The notes beneath the pieces were generated by a model that saw nothing but the letters and a program-made list of their open reading frames with translations, ran no database searches and was not told the origin of the DNA. Below are positions 6,646 through 30,249 of a stretch of 32,000 nt of DNA, piece after piece (position 1 is the first letter of the stretch; the number at the start of each line of letters is the position of its first letter). Source of the stretch: Fibrobacter succinogenes subsp. succinogenes S85 (GTDB lineage: Bacteria > Fibrobacterota > Fibrobacteria > Fibrobacterales > Fibrobacteraceae). The stretch covers positions 3,690,001 to 3,722,000 of the forward strand of contig NC_017448.1 of assembly GCF_000146505.1 (NCBI RefSeq), written 5' to 3'. The position numbers and the translations under genes were made by a program.

Positions 6646-6666
6646 AGTGCGAGCAAAGATAGAAAA

Positions 6667-6694
6667 GTTACTAGTTAGTAGTTACTAGTTACTA
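6667..6694. repeat. four tandem heptamers GTTACTA GTTAGTA GTTACTA GTTACTA in the hisS/mdh divergent intergenic region
   Basis: Read directly from the sequence. On the minus strand it is (TAGTAAC)-type x4, ending about 21 nt upstream of the hisS ATG. Confidence 0.85.
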
Positions 6695-22732: not shown

Positions 22733-23575
22733 ATGAATTTCTCTCGTCTTTGGACTTTCGCTTCGCTCAAGTCCCAACCATTCGGCTCGGTCATGCCCAA
22801 CTTCGTTGGTCGCGACTCTCGCCTTAAATGGTTGTCGTCTCTCGTTTTTATTCTCTCGTCTCTCGTCTTTACTCTCTCGTCTGCTTACGCCGAGGCTCCC
22901 CGTGTTGTGCCGACAATCCTTGATTCTATTCCGCACGAACAGTCTCATTTTACGCAAGGCCTCTCGTTTGACGGCAAAGAAATGATTGAAACCACAGGGC
23001 TGTATGGAAAATCTGGACTGTACCGCCGTACGCTTGACGGAAAAATTCTGGATTCCGCCCGCATTGAGGAACGCTATTTTGGCGAAGGCTCCGTAGCGCT
23101 TGGCGACGAAATCTATTATCTCACCTGGAAATCGCATAAGGCCTTTATCTACTCGCGCAAACCGTTCAAAAAGAAGGGTGAATTCCGCATCCCGACCGAA
23201 GGCTGGGGCCTTACGCTCTGGCGTGACCAGCTTTTGATGAGCAACGGTTCCGATGAACTTTTGCAAATTGCACCGGGCGGCTTTGATGTGTCCGGAATTA
23301 TCAAGGTTCACGATGGCCGCTATTCCATAAAACTCTTGAACGAACTTGAAGTTGTCGGAAATATTTTGTACGCAAACATCTGGCAGACCGACCTGATTGC
23401 CGAAATTGAACTCCCGAGCGGCAAGGTGCTCCGCTACATTGACTTTTCGAAAAAAGCGGGGGAGATCCGCGAAAAATTCCCCGGTGTCGACGTCCTAAAC
23501 GGCATCGCCTACGACGGCAAAAACTTCTGGATTACCGGCAAGCTTTGGCCGCAAATCTACAAAGTCAAGTTTTAA
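22733..23575 (+). CDS. glutaminyl-peptide cyclotransferase (bacterial/plant beta-propeller type), secreted
   Basis: HFTQGLSFDGKEMIETTGLYGKSGLYRRTL, YFGEGSVALGDEIYYLTWKS, EGWGLT and LNELEVVGNILYANIW fit the glutamine cyclotransferase family. An alternative start at ATG 22793 gives a conventional signal peptide MPNFVGRDSRLKWLSSLVFILSSLVFTLSSAYA. Confidence 0.8.
   Translation: MNFSRLWTFASLKSQPFGSVMPNFVGRDSRLKWLSSLVFILSSLVFTLSSAYAEAPRVVPTILDSIPHEQSHFTQGLSFDGKEMIETTGLYGKSGLYRRTLDGKILDSARIEERYFGEGSVALGDEIYYLTWKSHKAFIYSRKPFKKKGEFRIPTEGWGLTLWRDQLLMSNGSDELLQIAPGGFDVSGIIKVHDGRYSIKLLNELEVVGNILYANIWQTDLIAEIELPSGKVLRYIDFSKKAGEIREKFPGVDVLNGIAYDGKNFWITGKLWPQIYKVKF
22742..22881 (+). repeat. dispersed TCTCGTC heptamers plus a CGCTTCGC hairpin motif inside the 5' end of the cyclase ORF
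   Basis: TCTCGTC occurs at 22742-48, 22854-60, 22861-67 and 22875-81, with a TCGTCTCTCGT variant at 22835-45. CGCTTCGC (22759-66) sits inside the hairpin GGACT...AGTCC. Confidence 0.8.
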
Positions 23576-24303: not shown

Positions 24304-24823
24304 CCTCCGTATTAAAAAGGAACCAGTCGCAATTTGCAACCAGGTTCCATCAGCAAGTTTATGGGCTCCTCTTCACTTCCTTCATCATTAACTCCTTTGC
24401 GTTACAAGCGAAAAAACGCAAGATTACTACACCATTAAATATACATTCCCATTTTGTCACAAAGTGTCAAAATGAATTTTTCTTAAATTTGTTAAAATCT
24501 ACGGGAGTTTCCTGCTTGCAACGCAGAGGCGCTCCTTCCGGTATTGTGGGGTATGATTCCTAATGTAGGATTATCTTGAAATTTTCGCTGCAGAATACGT
24601 CGGCGATTGTATGATGGATGAGGATCGCAATCTTGTGTGCTTCTTCCCGAATGAGTCCCGCCTGAACCTTGCGCTCAATAACTACGAACGCTTGAGCTTC
24701 GTTGAAACCTCTCAGGGGTAACGGTTAATTTTATCCGCATTTTTGCAGAGAATTTTATAACGGCAACTTTTAGCGGAGTTGTCGTTTTTGTATATTGAGT
24801 TTGAATACGAATGAGAATTGTGA

Positions 24824-25012
24824 ATGAACAAGCAATCGATTGTAGAATGGATAAAAAAGAATGAAAGGCAGGCGAAAGTCTTTATTATAGGCTTTTATGG
24901 ATTTGTTATGCTTCTTTTGTATGCTTGTCATCCACCAGATTTTACTCCCGTGGACAATGAACGAGTGCTTGCTTATACGAAGGCTAATCAAAAAAAGGGA
25001 TTGGGTGCCTAA
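24824..25012 (+). CDS. small putative lipoprotein/membrane ORF, ends 12 nt after an A_AAA_AAG slippery site
   Basis: 62 aa with a charged n-region, hydrophobic core VFIIGFYGFVMLLLYA and a following Cys. It lies in an AT-rich region. I recognise no homology. Confidence 0.35.
   Translation: MNKQSIVEWIKKNERQAKVFIIGFYGFVMLLLYACHPPDFTPVDNERVLAYTKANQKKGLGA
24991..24997 (+). other. A_AAA_AAG heptamer in the zero-frame register of ORF 24824..25012; a -1 shift enters the frame of ORF 25048..25365
   Basis: Zero-frame codons are CAA AAA AAG GGA. The -1 frame is open from 24988 through 25365 and reads ...GIGCLIEGYELSKLEEPLVVPFLQVF... Confidence 0.5.
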
Positions 25013-25047
25013 TTGAAGGCTATGAACTTTCTAAATTAGAAGAACCT

Positions 25048-25365
25048 TTGGTTGTTCCTTTTTTGCAAGTATTTATCAATGGTTATTACGGATTGTATCG
25101 CGTATATGATGTTATGTATGTAAATGAATCTGGTGAAAAACGCAAGTTTTTAACTTATAAGTGTCCTTTAACTTATGGACTTGATGTTATTCCAGAAGAT
25201 ATTGATTTCGTGATTGAAGAAACTTCAGATGTAATAACTGTTTATTATGAAAAAGAACCGGTAGATGGCTTTAAGGTTGAAAATAATCCTTTCTCAAAAG
25301 AGATCCAATTTAAATTTTTGAGTGATTTGAAAAATGTACGTGCTGTAGAGGGGGCCTGTTTTTGA
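25048..25365 (+). CDS. hypothetical soluble protein; lacks its own ATG/RBS, possibly the downstream part of a frameshifted or recoded gene
   Basis: The only start near the 5' end is a TTG, and the first ATG is 22 codons in. The frame is open upstream to 24988. The stop overlaps the next ATG as TGATG. Confidence 0.35.
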   Translation: MVVPFLQVFINGYYGLYRVYDVMYVNESGEKRKFLTYKCPLTYGLDVIPEDIDFVIEETSDVITVYYEKEPVDGFKVENNPFSKEIQFKFLSDLKNVRAVEGACF

Positions 25366-25691
25366 TGAAAAAATGGATGTCCATGAATATTGGTGAACTT
25401 CCTTGGGTCAATCGTCTGCTTTCCCTGATTTCATCGATTTTGCTTTTTTTATATGGTTTGTCAAATGTAATGACATTGATTCATTATGGCTTTGAAAAAG
25501 ATTTTGGAACAATTTGGGCTTTGTCTGGTATTTTAATTTTACCTGCATCAATACTTTTATTCCTTGATTTTTTGAATGTTCAAATTTTATGGGTGAAAAA
25601 TCGCATATGGTTTGTATGTTTTTGGGTTGCTTTTGTGCTTAGAATTTTTACATATTTTTTAGGCCGTTTTCTTCATACTTATTATCATTGA
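25365..25691 (+). CDS. small hypothetical membrane protein (about 3 TM segments)
   Basis: ATG 25365 overlaps the previous stop as TGATG. Hydrophobic segments are LLSLISSILLFLYGL, IWALSGILILPASILLFL and IWFVCFWVAFVLRIF. Confidence 0.45.
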   Translation: MKKWMSMNIGELPWVNRLLSLISSILLFLYGLSNVMTLIHYGFEKDFGTIWALSGILILPASILLFLDFLNVQILWVKNRIWFVCFWVAFVLRIFTYFLGRFLHTYYH

Positions 25692-25709
25692 TTATGAAAA
25701 AGAATCAAT

Positions 25710-26033
25710 ATGAAGTGTTTTTTAACTTTGTTAATTTGTTTTTTAGTTTTTATTATAACTAGCTTTATTTGGAATGTAAGGCAGGGTTTGGAATCGTCTT
25801 TTTTAGTTGCTTTTGCTTCTTTGTTACTTTATATGTCTAAAAAGCCGACTGCGTATTTTATCGAGTGGCTTGCTTTTACGATTGTTTTTACCATAGGCTT
25901 ACTTTTATCGCTGCATTTGGGGGTGAAAATTCCGACGCGTCCTGTGCCATTGAACGAACTTTGGCTTAGTGTCCCGCATACTTTGAGTATATCGGGTTTG
26001 ATTGCGTGGTATTTTATGAAGAAGCATAAATAG
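25710..26033 (+). CDS. small hypothetical membrane protein (about 4 TM segments)
   Basis: 107 aa with hydrophobic segments CFLTLLICFLVFIITSFIW, FLVAFASLLLY, WLAFTIVFTIGLLLSL and ISGLIAWYF. AT-rich codon usage. Confidence 0.45.
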   Translation: MKCFLTLLICFLVFIITSFIWNVRQGLESSFLVAFASLLLYMSKKPTAYFIEWLAFTIVFTIGLLLSLHLGVKIPTRPVPLNELWLSVPHTLSISGLIAWYFMKKHK

Positions 26034-26102
26034 CAGCCATCTATTTTTCTAAATTTACCCCGTTCAAATTTAAGACGTGATATATTCACGAGGTAAAACA
26101 AT

Positions 26103-27608
26103 ATGGCAATGCAAGATATGAATGACCAGGTGATGGCTCGCTTGGCTAAGCTCGACAAGTTCAAGGAAATGGGTGTGGATGCTTATCCGCACAAGTTTAA
26201 CAGGACCCATGATTCCAAGGTTTTGAAGGAAAACAAGGATGCCTTGATGGTGACCAAGGAACCGGTTGCATTTGCCGGCCGCGTGGTGCGTTTCAATCGC
26301 AAGGGTAAAATGTGCTTTATGCACCTCAAGGACCGCTATGGCCGCTTGCAGGTTGTGGTTGCCCGTGACGAAGTGGGCGAAGAAAACTACGAAATCGTGA
26401 AGATGACCGACCTCGGTGACTTCATCGGTGTGAACGGTACGATGTTCGAAACGCAGAGCGGTGAATACTCTGTGCGTGCCGAAAAGGTCACGATGCTTTC
26501 GAAGGCTGTGCGCCCGCTCCCGGTCGCCAAGGAAAAGGTCGACGAAAACGGCAACAAGGTCGTGTTCAACGAATTTGCCGACGTGGATACCCGCTACCGC
26601 CAGCGCTATATCGACATGGCTTTGAACGACGACGTGAAGGAAGTCTTCATCAAGCGTTCCAAGATCATGCAGGCTATCCGCGAATACCTCATCGAAAAGG
26701 GATTCATCGAAGTCGAAACCCCGACGCTCCAGCCGATTTACGGTGGTGCTAACGCTCGTCCGTTTACGACGCACCACAATGCTTGCGACATGACGCTCTA
26801 CTTGCGCGTGGCTCCGGAACTTTACCTCAAACGCTGCATCATTGGCGGTATGGAAAAGGTGTTCGAGTTCTGCAAGAACTTCCGCAACGAAGGTATGGAC
26901 CGTACGCATAGCCCGGAATTCACTGGCCTCGAATTCTACGAAGCCTACGCCGACTACAACGACATGATGGTACACTTCGAAAACATTTACGAACGCGCCT
27001 GCATTGCCGCTAACGGTACGACCAAGGTCAACTACCAGGGCAAGGAAATCGACTTCAAGGCTCCGTGGCCGCGCTACAGCATGATCGAAGCCATTGAAAA
27101 GTTCGGTGGCATCAAGGTCAACGATATGAGCGACGACGAAATCAAGGCCAAGATGGAAGAACTCGGCGGTCACCTTGATGGTGAATTTACTCGTGGTCGT
27201 GGCATCTTGGAACTCTTCGATCTCACGGTGGAAGGCAAGCTCATCCAGCCGACGATCATCAAGGACATGCCTACCGAAAGCACCCCGCTCTGCAAGAAGC
27301 ACCGCACGACTGCAGGCCTCATCGAACAGTTCGAACCGTATGCTAACGGCTGGGAACTCGGTAACGCTTACACCGAACTTAACGATCCGATCCGCCAGCG
27401 CGAACTCCTTGAAGACCAGGTGCGTCGTGGCCGTGGTGGTGAAGGTGAAACCCATCCGATGGACGAAAACTTCATGCACGCTGTGGAAAGCGGTCTTCCG
27501 CCGACGGGCGGCGTGGGCTTTGGCATCGACCGCATGGTCATGCTCCTCACCAACCAGCAGACCATCCGCGACGTCCAGCTCTTCCCATTGATGAAGCCTG
27601 AGGTTTAG
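26103..27608 (+). CDS. lysS: lysine--tRNA ligase (class II)
   Basis: 501 aa. An OB-fold N-domain is followed by the class II core: RYRQRYIDMALN, FIEVETPTLQPIYGGANARPF, LYLRVAPELYLKR, FRNEGMDRTHSPEFTGLEFY and GGVGFGIDRMVMLLT. Confidence 0.95.
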   Translation: MAMQDMNDQVMARLAKLDKFKEMGVDAYPHKFNRTHDSKVLKENKDALMVTKEPVAFAGRVVRFNRKGKMCFMHLKDRYGRLQVVVARDEVGEENYEIVKMTDLGDFIGVNGTMFETQSGEYSVRAEKVTMLSKAVRPLPVAKEKVDENGNKVVFNEFADVDTRYRQRYIDMALNDDVKEVFIKRSKIMQAIREYLIEKGFIEVETPTLQPIYGGANARPFTTHHNACDMTLYLRVAPELYLKRCIIGGMEKVFEFCKNFRNEGMDRTHSPEFTGLEFYEAYADYNDMMVHFENIYERACIAANGTTKVNYQGKEIDFKAPWPRYSMIEAIEKFGGIKVNDMSDDEIKAKMEELGGHLDGEFTRGRGILELFDLTVEGKLIQPTIIKDMPTESTPLCKKHRTTAGLIEQFEPYANGWELGNAYTELNDPIRQRELLEDQVRRGRGGEGETHPMDENFMHAVESGLPPTGGVGFGIDRMVMLLTNQQTIRDVQLFPLMKPEV

Positions 27609-27675
27609 ACGAGAGAACGTCGCTTCGCGGCTACAGACGAGAGACGAAAGAACGTAAAAGGAAAAGATCTAGAGA

Positions 27676-28029
27676 ATGTTTGCGTATAGAAAACTATTGG
27701 TTTATCAGAAAGCTCTGCAATGGTTGCTAGACGTTTATCGTTTGTGTAGAACTTTTCCTGATTACGAAAGATTTGCTCTAACAAGTCAAATTAGGCGAGC
27801 TGCTGTTTCTGTGACTTCAAACATCGCAGAGGGTATGAGTCGTTCTTCGGACCGTGAAGTTGTACATTTTCTTGAAATAAGCTATGGATCATTGATGGAG
27901 GTTCAAAGTCAATTAGAAGTAGCTCAGTTGTTAAACTACATTTCAAAGGATTCTTTGGATGACGTCGATCCGAAGACTGAGGAAATCGCAAAAATGCTTT
28001 CTGGTTTGAAAAAGTCTAAAATGCGATAA
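27676..28029 (+). CDS. four-helix-bundle protein (23S rRNA intervening-sequence protein / Avd-like family)
   Basis: 117 aa. YQKALQWLLDVYRLCRTFPDYERFALTSQIRRAAVSVTSNIAEGMSR...FLEISYGSLMEVQSQLEVA is the characteristic pattern of TIGR02436/PF05635-type proteins, as I recall it. Confidence 0.85.
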   Translation: MFAYRKLLVYQKALQWLLDVYRLCRTFPDYERFALTSQIRRAAVSVTSNIAEGMSRSSDREVVHFLEISYGSLMEVQSQLEVAQLLNYISKDSLDDVDPKTEEIAKMLSGLKKSKMR

Positions 28030-28031
28030 TC

Positions 28032-28059
28032 TCTCGTCTCTCGTCTCTCGTCTCTCGTC
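28032..28059 (+). repeat. (TCTCGTC)x4 perfect tandem heptamer array, ending 1 nt before the lolE-like ATG
   Basis: Read directly, with units at 28032-38, 28039-45, 28046-52 and 28053-59. Confidence 0.95.
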
Positions 28060-28060
28060 T

Positions 28061-29311
28061 ATGATTAGTAAGCTCGAACTTCTCATCGCTTGGCGTTACT
28101 TGGGGGCTCAACGTAAGAGTCTCTTTGTTTCGCTTATTGGTATTTTCAGTATGCTCGGCGTTTCCATTGGCGTGTTTGCGCTGGTGGTGGCGCTTGCGGC
28201 GGTCAACGGTTTCGAAGAAGAGGTCACGGCCCAGATGATTGGGAAGGACGCTCACTTTGAACTGATGGCGTACAATGGCAATCCGATTGGTCCGTACGAT
28301 AGCCTCACGCAGGAGGTGCAAAAGCGTGTGCCTGACGTAGTCGCTTCGTCGCCGTTTATCGTTTACAAGGTGGGCATCAGCTCCAAGAAGGTGAACGATG
28401 GCATTGTCATTTACGGCATTGACCCGGCGACAGCCAAGGGCGTGACGGATATCCATAAATACATCAAGTGGGGAGAATACTCGGTCGACAGTCTTGAAGA
28501 CATGGGTGGCAAACGCCGTCCGGGAATTATTCTCGGGACTGGGCTTGCGGCGCGCTTGCGCGTTGTCGTTGGTGACAAACTCGTGTTGCAGACATTCCAG
28601 AGTCCGGACGAGGCGATGAGTTCGGGTGGCCCGAAGATGATGATGTGCGTGGTGAGCGGCATCTTCGAGACGGGTACTTACGAATACGATGGAAACCTTG
28701 CGTATGTCGGCATTTCGGATTTGCAGAAGTTGCTCGGCATGGGGAACACCGTGACCGGCATCCAGTTCCGCATCAAGGATCACTGGAAAGCGGGCGAGGC
28801 GGTCGATAGCATGGCGACTTGGCTATCTTATCCGTATTACGGGATGGATTGGAAGTCCAAGAACATCACGCTCCTCAAGTGGATGAACTACGAAAAGTTC
28901 ATTGTGGCGGCGGTGATTTGTTTGATTATCTTGGTCGCTGCGTTCAACATCATCAGCTCGCTCATCATGGTTGTGATTGACAAGACAAAGGAAATTGGCA
29001 TCTTGCGTAGCATGGGCTTTAGCAAGGCGGGCGTGATGCGTGTGTTCATGCTGATGGGAAGTTTCATTGGCGTGGGCGGTACCGTTGTGGGTGGAACTGT
29101 TGGACTTGTGCTCTGCAAGTTGCAAGAGGCTTACCACTTCATTAAGCTGCCTGGCGATGTGTACGTGATTCCGTATTTCCCGATTTCGGTGCATGCGATT
29201 GACGTTATTTTGATTTTTGTGATTGGTATTGTTTTGTGCGTGTCCGCGACGCTTTTGCCGGCGTGGAAAGCAAGCCGCTTGGATCCTGTGGGGGCGATTA
29301 GACATGAATGA
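28061..29311 (+). CDS. LolC/LolE-family lipoprotein-releasing ABC transporter permease (FtsX/MacB-type)
   Basis: 416 aa. N-terminus reads LLIAWRYLGAQRKSLFVSLIGIFSMLGVSIGV, followed by a large periplasmic loop and a C-terminal FtsX-like domain (KTKEIGILRSMGFS...ATLLPAWKASRLDPVGAIR). Confidence 0.85.
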   Translation: MISKLELLIAWRYLGAQRKSLFVSLIGIFSMLGVSIGVFALVVALAAVNGFEEEVTAQMIGKDAHFELMAYNGNPIGPYDSLTQEVQKRVPDVVASSPFIVYKVGISSKKVNDGIVIYGIDPATAKGVTDIHKYIKWGEYSVDSLEDMGGKRRPGIILGTGLAARLRVVVGDKLVLQTFQSPDEAMSSGGPKMMMCVVSGIFETGTYEYDGNLAYVGISDLQKLLGMGNTVTGIQFRIKDHWKAGEAVDSMATWLSYPYYGMDWKSKNITLLKWMNYEKFIVAAVICLIILVAAFNIISSLIMVVIDKTKEIGILRSMGFSKAGVMRVFMLMGSFIGVGGTVVGGTVGLVLCKLQEAYHFIKLPGDVYVIPYFPISVHAIDVILIFVIGIVLCVSATLLPAWKASRLDPVGAIRHE

Positions 29312-29410
29312 TTTAGACGAAAGAACGCTTCGCCTTTGGCTTCGCTATAGACGAAAGAGTAAAGAGTTTGATATAATTCTTTCGTCTTTCGTCTTTCGTC
29401 TTTCGTCTAT
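29312..29410 (+). repeat. gene-less miniature inverted-repeat element of the same family: two GACGAAAG left arms + (TTTCGTC)x4 right arm
   Basis: TAGACGAAAGA (29314-24) and ATAGACGAAAGA (29347-58) are exact reverse complements of TCTTTCGTCTA(T) (29399-29410). The heptamer units lie at 29380-86, 29387-93, 29394-400 and 29401-07. CGCTTCGC lies at 29326-33. Confidence 0.85.
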
Positions 29411-29421
29411 TGGAGTTTTTT

Positions 29422-30093
29422 ATGTCTAGCTTACTACAAACAGAAAATCTTCGTCGTGTCTTCTCCGAGACGGGTGAATCTCTTGAAATCCTCAAGGGCG
29501 TGAATTTTTCGATGGAAGCGGGCGAGCTTGTGGCGCTCACGGGTTCATCGGGTTCTGGCAAATCGACGTTCTTGAATTTGGTCGGAATGCTTGATACACC
29601 AACTTCGGGCGAGATTTTGTTCAAGGGCAAGCCGCTTAGTAAATTCAGTAGCGAAGAACGCGATATGTACCATCGGAAGCATGTTGGGTTCGTTTTCCAG
29701 TTCCATCACTTGCTCACGGAATTTACGGCGCTCGAAAATGTTTGCGTGCCGGGCCGCATTCTCGGGACTCCCGAAAAGGAATGCCGCGAACGTGCTGAAA
29801 TGCTTTTGGAAACGGTGGGCCTCAAGGAACGCCTCAAGCACTTGCCGCGAGAACTTTCGGGCGGTGAACGCCAGCGAATTGCAATCGCGCGTGCGCTCAT
29901 GAACAACCCGTCCCTCGTGTTTGCGGATGAACCGAGCGGTAACCTGGATGAAGCGAATTCGGCGAAATTGAACGAGCTCTTTGGCGAACTCAATGAAAAG
30001 TTCCATCAGGCGTTCTTGATTGTGACGCACGATGAAAAGCTTGCTAGTTTTGCAAAACGCCGAGTCGTGATGCATAATGGAGTGATTCAATAG
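29422..30093 (+). CDS. LolD-like ABC transporter ATP-binding protein
   Basis: Walker A GSSGSGKST, signature LSGGERQRIAIARAL and Walker B LVFADEPSGNLD. The start is taken at ATG 29422, with GGAG 6 nt upstream, rather than the track TTG 29410. Confidence 0.88.
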   Translation: MSSLLQTENLRRVFSETGESLEILKGVNFSMEAGELVALTGSSGSGKSTFLNLVGMLDTPTSGEILFKGKPLSKFSSEERDMYHRKHVGFVFQFHHLLTEFTALENVCVPGRILGTPEKECRERAEMLLETVGLKERLKHLPRELSGGERQRIAIARALMNNPSLVFADEPSGNLDEANSAKLNELFGELNEKFHQAFLIVTHDEKLASFAKRRVVMHNGVIQ

Positions 30094-30104
30094 GGACTTG
30101 AGCA

Positions 30105-30249
30105 ATGAGGTCGCTCATTTCACTCGCTTTGAGGTCGCCTTGCAAGCAAGGCTTTGAGTGAAATAAAGGAGGCTACGCCTTGACAATTAAAACCTCAAAG
30201 GCACGAAGTGCCGTGCTCATAGCCCAGAGCACCGTAGGTGCGACCTCAT
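30105..30249. repeat. about 145-nt structured intergenic element bounded by 10-bp terminal inverted repeats (candidate MITE/REP or sRNA)
   Basis: ATGAGGTCGC (30105-14) pairs with GCGACCTCAT (30240-49). Internal pairings are ATTTCACTC/GAGTGAAAT, CCTTGC-AA-GCAAGG, TTGAGGT/ACCTCAA, GGCAC-GAA-GTGCC and GCACC-GTA-GGTGC. Confidence 0.55.

Follow-up and report, generated by a model that had tools for sequence, protein, structure and literature searches.

Inverted heptamer arrays around a four-helix-bundle gene at the lysS-lolE junction of Fibrobacter succinogenes S85: a candidate intervening-sequence-type cassette in mRNA

We analysed a 32,000-nucleotide (nt) stretch of Fibrobacter succinogenes subsp. 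succinogenes S85 (NC_017448.1 / CP001792.1, positions 3,690,001 to 3,722,000 of the forward strand; referred to as the window and numbered from its first letter) and identified a small cassette, composed of a PF05635 gene and inverted arrays of a seven-base unit, exactly between lysS and a lolC/E-type gene (here lolE). The interpretation that we favour, with about even confidence, is a hitch-hiking cassette similar to the intervening sequences (IVSs) of 23S rRNA: a promoterless four-helix-bundle gene, enclosed by inverted heptamer arms, at the boundary of two co-transcribed genes. It was designated an IVS-type cassette in mRNA because it works like a 23S IVS yet lies between lysS and lolE, and not in helix 25 or 45 of 23S rRNA. 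As in IVSs, a stem can be formed, here by arms of 11 nt (perfect) and 17 nt (94% complementary; fold z=-4.3), and the same gene-plus-hairpin design was found to recur in homologous loci across phyla. The features of the locus are as follows, with period and copy number of the right array taken from Tandem Repeats Finder (TRF):

26103-27608, + strand: lysS, class II lysyl-tRNA synthetase (PF00152, E=2e-85; PF01336; from the list of open reading frames, ORFs)
27606-27616, + strand: outer left arm TAGACGAGAGA, 11-nt perfect complement of 28051-28061
27619-27631, + strand: small hairpin of 13 nt, GTCGC-TTC-GCGGC, in the interval between outer and inner left arms (predicted folds)
27635-27651, + strand: inner left arm AGACGAGAGACGAAAGA, 94% complementary to three registers of the right array
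27676-28029, + strand: four-helix-bundle gene, 117 aa (profile matches to PF05635/TIGR02436)
28030-28061, + strand: right arm, (TCTCTCG)x4 plus TCTA (TRF: period 7, 4.4 copies, 100% matches over 28030-28060)
28061-29311, + strand: lolC/E-type lipoprotein-release permease gene (TIGR02212, E=2e-92, 310.5 bits, under the curated cutoff of 362.45; PF12704; PF02687)

The TAG stop codon of lysS (27606-27608) provides the first three nucleotides of the outer left arm TAGACGAGAGA, whose perfect reverse complement, TCTCTCGTCTA (28051-28061), ends on the A of the lolE ATG. Both observations had been made in a first-pass annotation of this DNA and were confirmed at the same coordinates. Its other structural claims also held: the inner left arm is complementary to the right array, an uninterrupted (TCTCTCG)x4.4 repeat, in three registers, and the 117-aa frame is the only cargo, being the sole + strand ORF of at least 60 aa between the arms. 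The arms are composed of the heptamer AGACGAG and its complement, and TCTCGTCTCTCGTC, allowing up to two mismatches, occurs nine times in the window compared to 0.18 expected. GC content is ~0.39-0.41 in the cassette and 0.52-0.59 in its flanks. The RNA of 27596-28075 was predicted to fold better than all shuffled controls (z=-4.3), and a construct containing only the arms gave a similar result against its shuffled counterparts (z=-4.2). With the 13-nt hairpin placed between the two left arms, the RNA is predicted to form a three-way junction that holds the ORF in its loop. A search of the whole window with Rfam 15 at gathering thresholds yielded no matches and no rRNA anywhere; at E<=10, the region 27500-29500 produced only a chance small nucleolar RNA match, with the arms and the ORF-less element described below matching no known RNA family. 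Promoter and terminator scans of 26000-30200 gave site counts no higher than those of shuffled sequence, and no terminator in the lysS-lolE interval.

Judged by its profile matches, the 117-aa protein is a bona fide full-length member of PF05635 (E=8e-37, 126.1 bits, cutoff 33.8, covering profile positions 1-106 of 106) and TIGR02436 (E=5e-37, 126.4 bits, cutoff 24). At E<1e-5 it has 2233 homologues, and the closest solved structure is PDB 2gsc (XCC0516, E=7e-19). Its ratio of nonsynonymous to synonymous divergence (dN/dS) among Fibrobacter strains is 0.04-0.10, compared to 0.03-0.08 for lysS and lolE, which points to purifying selection comparable to that on its neighbours. The cassette protein shares its fold with Avd, the accessory protein of diversity-generating retroelements (DGRs), of which it is a distant sequence relative; however, its scores with both curated Avd models were weak and below cutoff (PF22296, E=3e-7, 31 bits, cutoff 40; NF033474, E=6.5e-7, 29.6 bits, cutoff 80). 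No reverse transcriptase domain was detected in the Pfam-annotated genes within 10 kb on either side; template/variable repeats were not searched for. A DGR was therefore rejected, in agreement with the first-pass annotation.

The inverted heptamer-arm architecture appears to be a rule of the PF05635 family and not a local curiosity. A metagenome scan with a 12-sequence alignment provided 80 diverse homologous loci (40-55% identity), and their 150-nt upstream and downstream flanks were analysed using a threshold score of at least 14 for inverted flanks and mismatched flank pairs as controls. Arrays of period 7 were present in 21/78 upstream flanks (periods 5, 6 and 8-11: 0-3) and 24/74 downstream flanks (the same other periods: 0-2), compared to 19/1152 background windows of the same loci (periods 5, 6, 8 and 9: 0-5), a 25-fold enrichment (Fisher p=2e-30). 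Inverted flanks were found in 36 of 72 loci and in none of 212 mismatched pairs, and either an array or an inverted repeat was detected in 48/72. The heptamers vary among cassettes (GTGGAAT, AGTGGTT, GGTTATT, AGGAATC, GTTTAGA, GGGGTCA and others), and within a cassette both arms match. Placement is also regular: the upstream neighbour was co-oriented in 59/67 loci (median gap, 58 nt), the start of the left arm lies at a median of -1 nt relative to the stop codon of this neighbour, and the right arm ends at a median of ~10 nt ahead of the next ORF start. C is scarce on the sense strand of the upstream arm (G 464, T 365, A 342, C 134), and mismatches between arms are more often of the G.U type (36) than of the A.C type (17; p=0.013). 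A set of 34 viral-contig loci reproduced the period-7 signal (arrays in 10 upstream and 6 downstream flanks; other periods, at most 1), and 0/40 sampled homologous loci were located in an rRNA gene.

These data bear on the idea that the arrays are a neutral by-product, i.e., slippage-prone simple repeats that pile up in intergenic DNA and whose position around the gene has no function. Differences in unit number between strains (4 vs 6, 2 vs 4) would be expected from such a process, and heptamer arrays with many different units abound in these genomes, but the 25-fold excess over background windows and the restriction of inverted flanks to true pairs argue against it. The same is true of two observations described below, namely arms that are identical in strains whose ORFs differ at a synonymous divergence (dS) above 1, and a concerted switch of the heptamer in both arms at one orthologous site. 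We therefore disfavour this explanation and consider it very improbable.

Further comparisons showed the gene and its arms to travel and diverge as one unit. A second Fibrobacter locus has a 70% identical homologue after floA, in the floA operon, with the same arms, and the stop codon of the upstream gene is again the TAG of TAGACGAAAGA. In an rnf operon of Rikenellaceae, a 69% identical homologue is flanked by (AGACGAG)x4 and CTCGTCT units, and a homologue with only ~30% identity (33% over the aligned segment) in a metagenome-assembled genome (MAG) of Pyrinomonadaceae (Acidobacteriota) is preceded by (AGACGAG)x4-5 and followed by a degenerate complement. At the orthologous rnf site of a related lineage, all units of both arms differ, AGACGAG/CTCGTCT being replaced by AGTCGAG/CTCGACT; RnfB is 89% identical between the two lineages and the four-helix-bundle protein 76%. 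This two-arm switch is a compensatory change that runs through all units of both arms. Across different genomic contexts, mean heptamer distance decreased from 3.3 to 0.9 as protein identity increased from <50% to >=70%.

Two additional arrangements were observed at such loci. In the rnf operons of Rikenellaceae (L144:3920-3958 and L276:2440-2488), an upstream RseC-like ORF runs through the left heptamer array, so that the arm encodes the C-terminus of this ORF (...FTLQTRDERRETRD or ...SLVESRKSRVESRESRGYQ). A 58% identical homologue in a Bacteroidales ior/phenylacetate-CoA ligase operon (L279:2390-3000 and L280) has two nested arm pairs made of different heptamers, AAGATTA/TAATCTT outside and GAGTAAA/TTAACTC inside.

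When the lysS-lolE junction was compared in relatives, the cassette was missing from four other Fibrobacteraceae, which have these spacers:

Fibrobacter sp. UWP2: 6 nt (TTATCG)
Hallerella porci: 48 nt, with a terminator-like hairpin
F. intestinalis: 86 nt
Fibrobacter sp. UWEL (L156:3401-3500): 100 nt, with an ORF-less hairpin of a different heptamer, (ATGAATT)x2 ... (AATTCAT)x2

Because the spacer varies across the family in this manner (6-100 nt), the cassette is an insertion relative to an ancestral 6-nt junction. In the UWEL spacer, ATCTCGT/CTCTCGT-like units are also present after the hairpin, directly before the lolE ATG, and heptamer elements seem to have landed at this junction repeatedly. 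The exact S85 protein sequence was found in 61 blocks of the collection, downstream of lysS in 9/9 places listed, and homologues with 85% and 80% identity occupy the same junction with identical arms. Between S85 and the strain with the 80% homologue, the arms are identical, but divergence is seen in the small hairpin, in the loop and at synonymous sites of the ORF (dS 1.2-2.4); the right array has 4 to 6 units in different strains. Both the protein and the arms evolve under constraint. Synonymous divergence in the cassette does not follow that in the flanks and deviates in both directions (2.4 vs 0.5-0.7 for L001-L130; 0.09 vs 0.36-0.62 for L136-L137), which hints at allelic exchange of the cassette between strains. 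From its distribution, the cassette is old, fixed, syntenic and vertically kept in the F. succinogenes clade, and not a recent mobile insertion. The first-pass annotation had suggested a selfish or processing cassette; at this locus, 'selfish' has to be qualified in view of the long-standing vertical residence and the strongly constrained protein.

The 23S rRNA IVSs of the Leptospira/Coxiella type ('S23p') contain a gene of the same protein family, looped out by a stem of terminal inverted repeats, and their insertion site allows the stem to close the host RNA; the placement of the cassette follows the same logic. The likeness to this stem-plus-ORF architecture, which the first-pass annotation had drawn, is strengthened by the Coxiella IVS, in which strain-variable tandem heptamers (GACAGAT) are located just upstream of the ORF and the RNase III cleavage site coincides with the start of the first repeat (PMC4990558). 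There are also differences. The Coxiella ORF was reported to be decaying and is probably untranslated, whereas the cassette protein is under strong purifying selection. In addition, 23S IVSs are excised by RNase III, whereas cleavage of the cassette is a prediction by analogy.

A mechanism may be proposed on this basis. The cassette would be transcribed by read-through from lysS, and its arms would pair in the transcript to form an 11 + 17 bp stem interrupted by the small hairpin. This stem would close off the insertion and bring the lysS stop and the lolE start side by side again, with T27606 paired to A28061, in the way that an rRNA IVS stem closes helix 45. As stop and start are brought back together, the insertion could be tolerable and structurally neutral for the host. 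The stacked stem of ~28 bp is a plausible RNase III substrate by analogy with 23S IVSs and the Haemophilus hmw hairpin (see below), and a cut would yield an independent mRNA for the four-helix-bundle protein, with a short pyrimidine-rich leader left ahead of lolE. When a ribosome terminates lysS translation on the TAG within the arm, the outer stem would be opened and the lolE start freed, so that lysS and lolE could stay translationally coupled as at the ancestral 6-nt junction. Cleavage by RNase III, an uncoupling or regulatory effect on lysS and lolE, and a sequestered lolE start, all raised in the first-pass annotation, are predictions. The computational checks that it had proposed as possible refutations, on uniqueness of the arms, polymorphism at the junction and folding against shuffled controls, each came out in favour of the idea.

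We also detected a gene-free copy of the same element 1.25 kb downstream of the loaded cassette, in the spacer between lolE and lolD. Its features, found by heptamer motif search and TRF, are:

29312-29409, + strand: ORF-less copy in the lolE-lolD spacer
29314-29324, + strand: outer arm TAGACGAAAGA
29349-29365, + strand: inner arm AGACGAAAGAGTAAAGA, followed by a 12-nt loop
29378-29409, + strand: right array, (TCTTTCG)x4 plus TCTA
29422-30093, + strand: lolD-type ABC ATPase gene (PF00005)

Its layout is TTTAGACGAAAGAACG, a variable segment, TATAGACGAAAGAGTAAAGA, the 12-nt loop and (TCTTTCG)x4 TCTA. Compared to the loaded copy, G-to-A changes on the left arms are accompanied by matching C-to-T changes in the right array. 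The RNA fold is again favourable (z=-5.1), and the predicted stem extends further, so that the lolE stop region pairs with the lolD start region. This copy is itself polymorphic among strains. It is absent from L003, L137 and L139, in which the lolE stop and lolD start overlap and share CATGAGTAG; by comparison, this overlap is the ancestral state. At exactly the overlap point, an element is carried by S85, L004, L002 and L130; the copy is present in L001 and L004. Elements are found at the identical nucleotide position in three lineages. With regard to target-site duplication, the region around ATGAGTAGTTTA is present on both sides in S85 with the two copies differing at 6/12 positions, and none was found in L002 or L130; a clean duplication was not detected at lolE-lolD.

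The consequences for lolD differ between strains. In S85, the element breaks the lolD frame, and a new ATG (29422) with a re-created MSSLLQT follows; ATG 29422, re-created downstream of the element, is the probable start of lolD. In L002 (11629-11820) and L130 (5629-5820), when compared with L003:6017-6100 and window positions 29300-29440, the element lies in frame and free of stops inside lolD, where it adds 36-37 codons after codon 2-3 (MNN-LDERTLVNSLQTRDERGENSASRKEGNISRLSSLVSP-LLQT...). L002 has no alternative ATG after the element, and the called LolD is 258-263 aa long rather than 223. The loop of the empty copy also contains an extended -10-like sequence, TGATATAAT. A promoter-like site at 29348-29377 (TAGACG, an 18-nt spacer and a TG-preceded TATAAT) would initiate within the TCTTTCG array, just 5' of lolD, in a region where the count of such sites does not exceed that of shuffled sequence; Fibrobacter rules may differ.

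Such behaviour raises the alternative of a mobile element that acts at the DNA level. The arrays would then be terminal or subterminal inverted repeats bound by a recombinase, or single-stranded DNA hairpins comparable to those of IS200/IS605, of repetitive extragenic palindromes and their associated transposases (REP/RAYT) or of integron attC sites; the protein would be an accessory or cargo, ORF-less copies would resemble miniature inverted-repeat transposable elements (MITEs), and RNA pairing would be incidental. Relocation of arms and gene as a unit between loci and phyla, the multicopy and insertion-polymorphic ORF-less copies, the repeated use of one nucleotide of the lolE/lolD overlap in three lineages and the decoupled dS of the cassette (L136-L137, L001-L130) would all fit this possibility. 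However, transposase, integrase and reverse transcriptase are all absent from the annotated genes within 10 kb, no catalytic activity is known for the protein family, and the lolE-lolD site lacks a clean target-site duplication. In addition, the co-orientation with upstream neighbours (59/67) and the strand asymmetry of the arms indicate a constraint at the transcript level. With regard to integrons, an integron cassette has a single attC site, whereas here arms are present on both sides of the ORF, and no integron integrase domain was found among genes within 10 kb (no attC model was run). Overall, we consider a DNA-level element unlikely.

A scan of one genome per species for at least three TCTYTCG units yielded at least 120 loci, and the counts given for arrays and ORF-less copies from here on refer to the loci listed, among which the S85 chromosome is not included. 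In addition to many Fibrobacter, the hosts were Alistipes and other Rikenellaceae, further Bacteroidota, Planctomycetota, Gemmatimonadota, Acidobacteriota, Nitrospirota, Sorangium and Kouleothrix. The arms are thus not confined to the lysS-lolE locus, further copies being present both in the window and in Fibrobacter contigs; the latter contain ~25 further copies of a composite element with the layout TAGACGARAGAACG, variable segment, CTACAGACGARAGACGAAAGA, loop of 11-95 nt and (TCTCTCG)4 TCTA. In 12 copies, hand-picked as hairpin-like, the variable segment is a hairpin of differing sequence in which 95% of cells pair and 4/5 pairs show compensatory changes, a covariation score that was reached by 0/500 shuffles. 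ORF-less copies are multicopy, have terminal inverted repeats and show presence/absence polymorphism, as MITEs do, and are best explained as a gene-free form of the same hairpin element. A good analogue is the Correia (NEMIS) MITEs of Neisseria, which have short inverted repeats, are co-transcribed with their neighbours, form hairpins cut by RNase III, and are multicopy and insertion-polymorphic. The ends of Correia elements are not tandem heptamers, and TA is duplicated at the target; they are not known to carry a gene.

Other repeats and variable regions were noticed in the course of these analyses. Heptamers of the TCTCTCGTC type (period 7, 6.9 copies, 65% matches) are located at 22835-22882, inside ORF 22733-23575 (PF05096, glutaminyl cyclase-like), where their translation provides the hydrophobic core of what looks like a signal peptide (WLSSLVFILSSLVFTLSSAYA). 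A pyrimidine array has no A and is therefore free of stops in every frame, and this one may have been recruited to encode protein. A different heptamer array, (AGTTACT)x4.1, is present at 6666-6694 in a divergent intergenic region, so S85 has more than one heptamer family; the AGTTACT unit adjoins a TCTTTCG array in another F. succinogenes MAG (L033). A second repeat family (...GGATCCTTCGACTTCGC, variable hairpin, GCTCAGGATGACA...) often occurs directly 5' of TCTYTCG arrays (L038, L042, L046, L051, L052, L095, L101 and L113). Directly 5' of lysS, the region ~24800-26100 is AT-rich (GC 0.27-0.38) with several small hydrophobic ORFs; when L001, L002 and L003 were compared, the same place was found to contain a 1557-aa protein and a SocA_Panacea gene in L002 and an ATPase_2 gene in L003. 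This side of lysS looks like a variable island.

Several findings weigh against an IVS-type cassette in mRNA as a full account. In about 10 of the ~27 composite copies, direct CTCGC repeats take the place of the small hairpin, and the covariation given above was calculated on copies chosen by hand from the hairpin class. In many Fibrobacter copies, GAAAG on the left is opposite CTCTC on the right, an arrangement that places an A.C mismatch in every such unit of the sense strand, with a maximum of three in one element; perfect pairing is not maintained at this position. A left arm was found in the preceding 250 nt for only 7/32 Fibrobacter TCTYTCG arrays, and most arrays are therefore not hairpins and need another origin or role. 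The excess of G.U over A.C mismatches in the metagenome loci is modest and could also arise from strand-biased mutation. Finally, period 7 itself is not explained by this reading, which also leaves the protein without a function. Three generalisations were rejected: that the small hairpin is universal, given the ~10 copies with direct CTCGC repeats; that G/A and C/T compensation is a general rule, as it is true between the two window copies and not where GAAAG is opposite CTCTC; and that most TCTYTCG arrays carry a four-helix-bundle gene, which was found in 2/120 loci, directly abutting the array in both.

In a third alternative, the protein is a regulator and the heptamers are its operators. 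A protein that is pentameric in two solved relatives (PDB 2gsc and 2rld, each deposited with five chains) would bind the heptamers as RNA or DNA, its own flanks would be autoregulatory, and ORF-less (TCTCTCG)4 arrays before start codons would form the regulon. Among the Fibrobacter arrays analysed, 25/32 have exactly four units and 20/32 end in TCTA; four units with this end provide five evenly spaced TCT cores. An ORF start lies within 45 nt downstream of 14/32 arrays on the sense strand and of 5/32 on the antisense strand. Heptamer sequence follows protein sequence, and as-yet-unnamed regulators were proposed earlier for heptamer arrays of Beggiatoaceae and Geobacter (PMC4679880, PMC2700814). 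On the other hand, binding is purely putative for every member of the family, simple co-inheritance predicts the same co-divergence of heptamer and protein, and the same heptamer flanks a protein with only ~30% identity (L085). The inversion of the arms and the start of the left arm at the upstream stop codon are also left unexplained, and we regard a regulator with operators as quite unlikely.

Returning to the IVS-type cassette in mRNA, other transcribed or intergenic heptamers may be compared with it. In the 5' untranslated region of Haemophilus influenzae hmw, an (ATCTTTC)n hairpin is cleaved by RNase III, with effects on downstream expression and on repeat number (PMC12721329). The hmw heptamer resembles TCTTTCG of the empty element, is transcribed in the 5' leader and pairs with a G-rich arm; however, there is no gene within the hairpin, only one arm is repetitive, and the locus is phase-variable with at least 10 units, compared to a fixed 4-unit array. 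Other heptamer repeats, as described in passages of two reports, include the short tandemly repeated repetitive (STRR) sequences of cyanobacteria, TAACTGA of Beggiatoaceae, Cyanobacteria and Bacteroidetes, and the four-heptamer elements of Geobacter, all of which have period 7 and few units and are intergenic (PMC4679880, PMC2700814). According to the same passages, they share with the Fibrobacter arrays a fixed orientation and a frequent position a few nt before start codons, and the TAACTGA sets comprise 169 direct repeats and one indirect. The arms of the cassette and the ORF-less copies are part of this broader heptamer-repeat phenomenon. The term-searched passages of these reports contain no tie to four-helix-bundle genes.

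More broadly, PF05635 genes with inverted heptamer arrays may constitute a widespread class of small hitch-hiking or mobile cassettes in Fibrobacterota, Bacteroidota, Acidobacteriota, (pro)viral contigs and many unassigned environmental contigs, in which 23S IVSs would be the special case found in rRNA. Each protein would recognise the arms of its own cassette, possibly with a pentamer spanning 4-5 units, and STRR, TAACTGA and similar repeats would be ORF-less relatives or footprints; we put this forward only as a tentative possibility. No paper was found that describes this architecture outside rRNA or ties non-rRNA four-helix-bundle genes to inverted heptamer arrays, in a literature search that covered subscription journals poorly and to which a prior description may be hidden.

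Two puzzles have persisted since ~1990: the nature and purpose of rRNA IVSs and their conserved ORF, and the intergenic seven-base tandem repeats that often precede start codons. The lysS-lolE locus and its relatives connect both, with the same protein family, period-7 arms and the logic of a stem that closes an insertion, in operon mRNAs across phyla, and both questions become testable in F. succinogenes S85. There are also consequences for genome annotation, as the arms supply stop codons, may be translated as part of a neighbouring gene and can displace start codons. Taken together, these data suggest an overlooked class of hitch-hiking gene cassette in several phyla.

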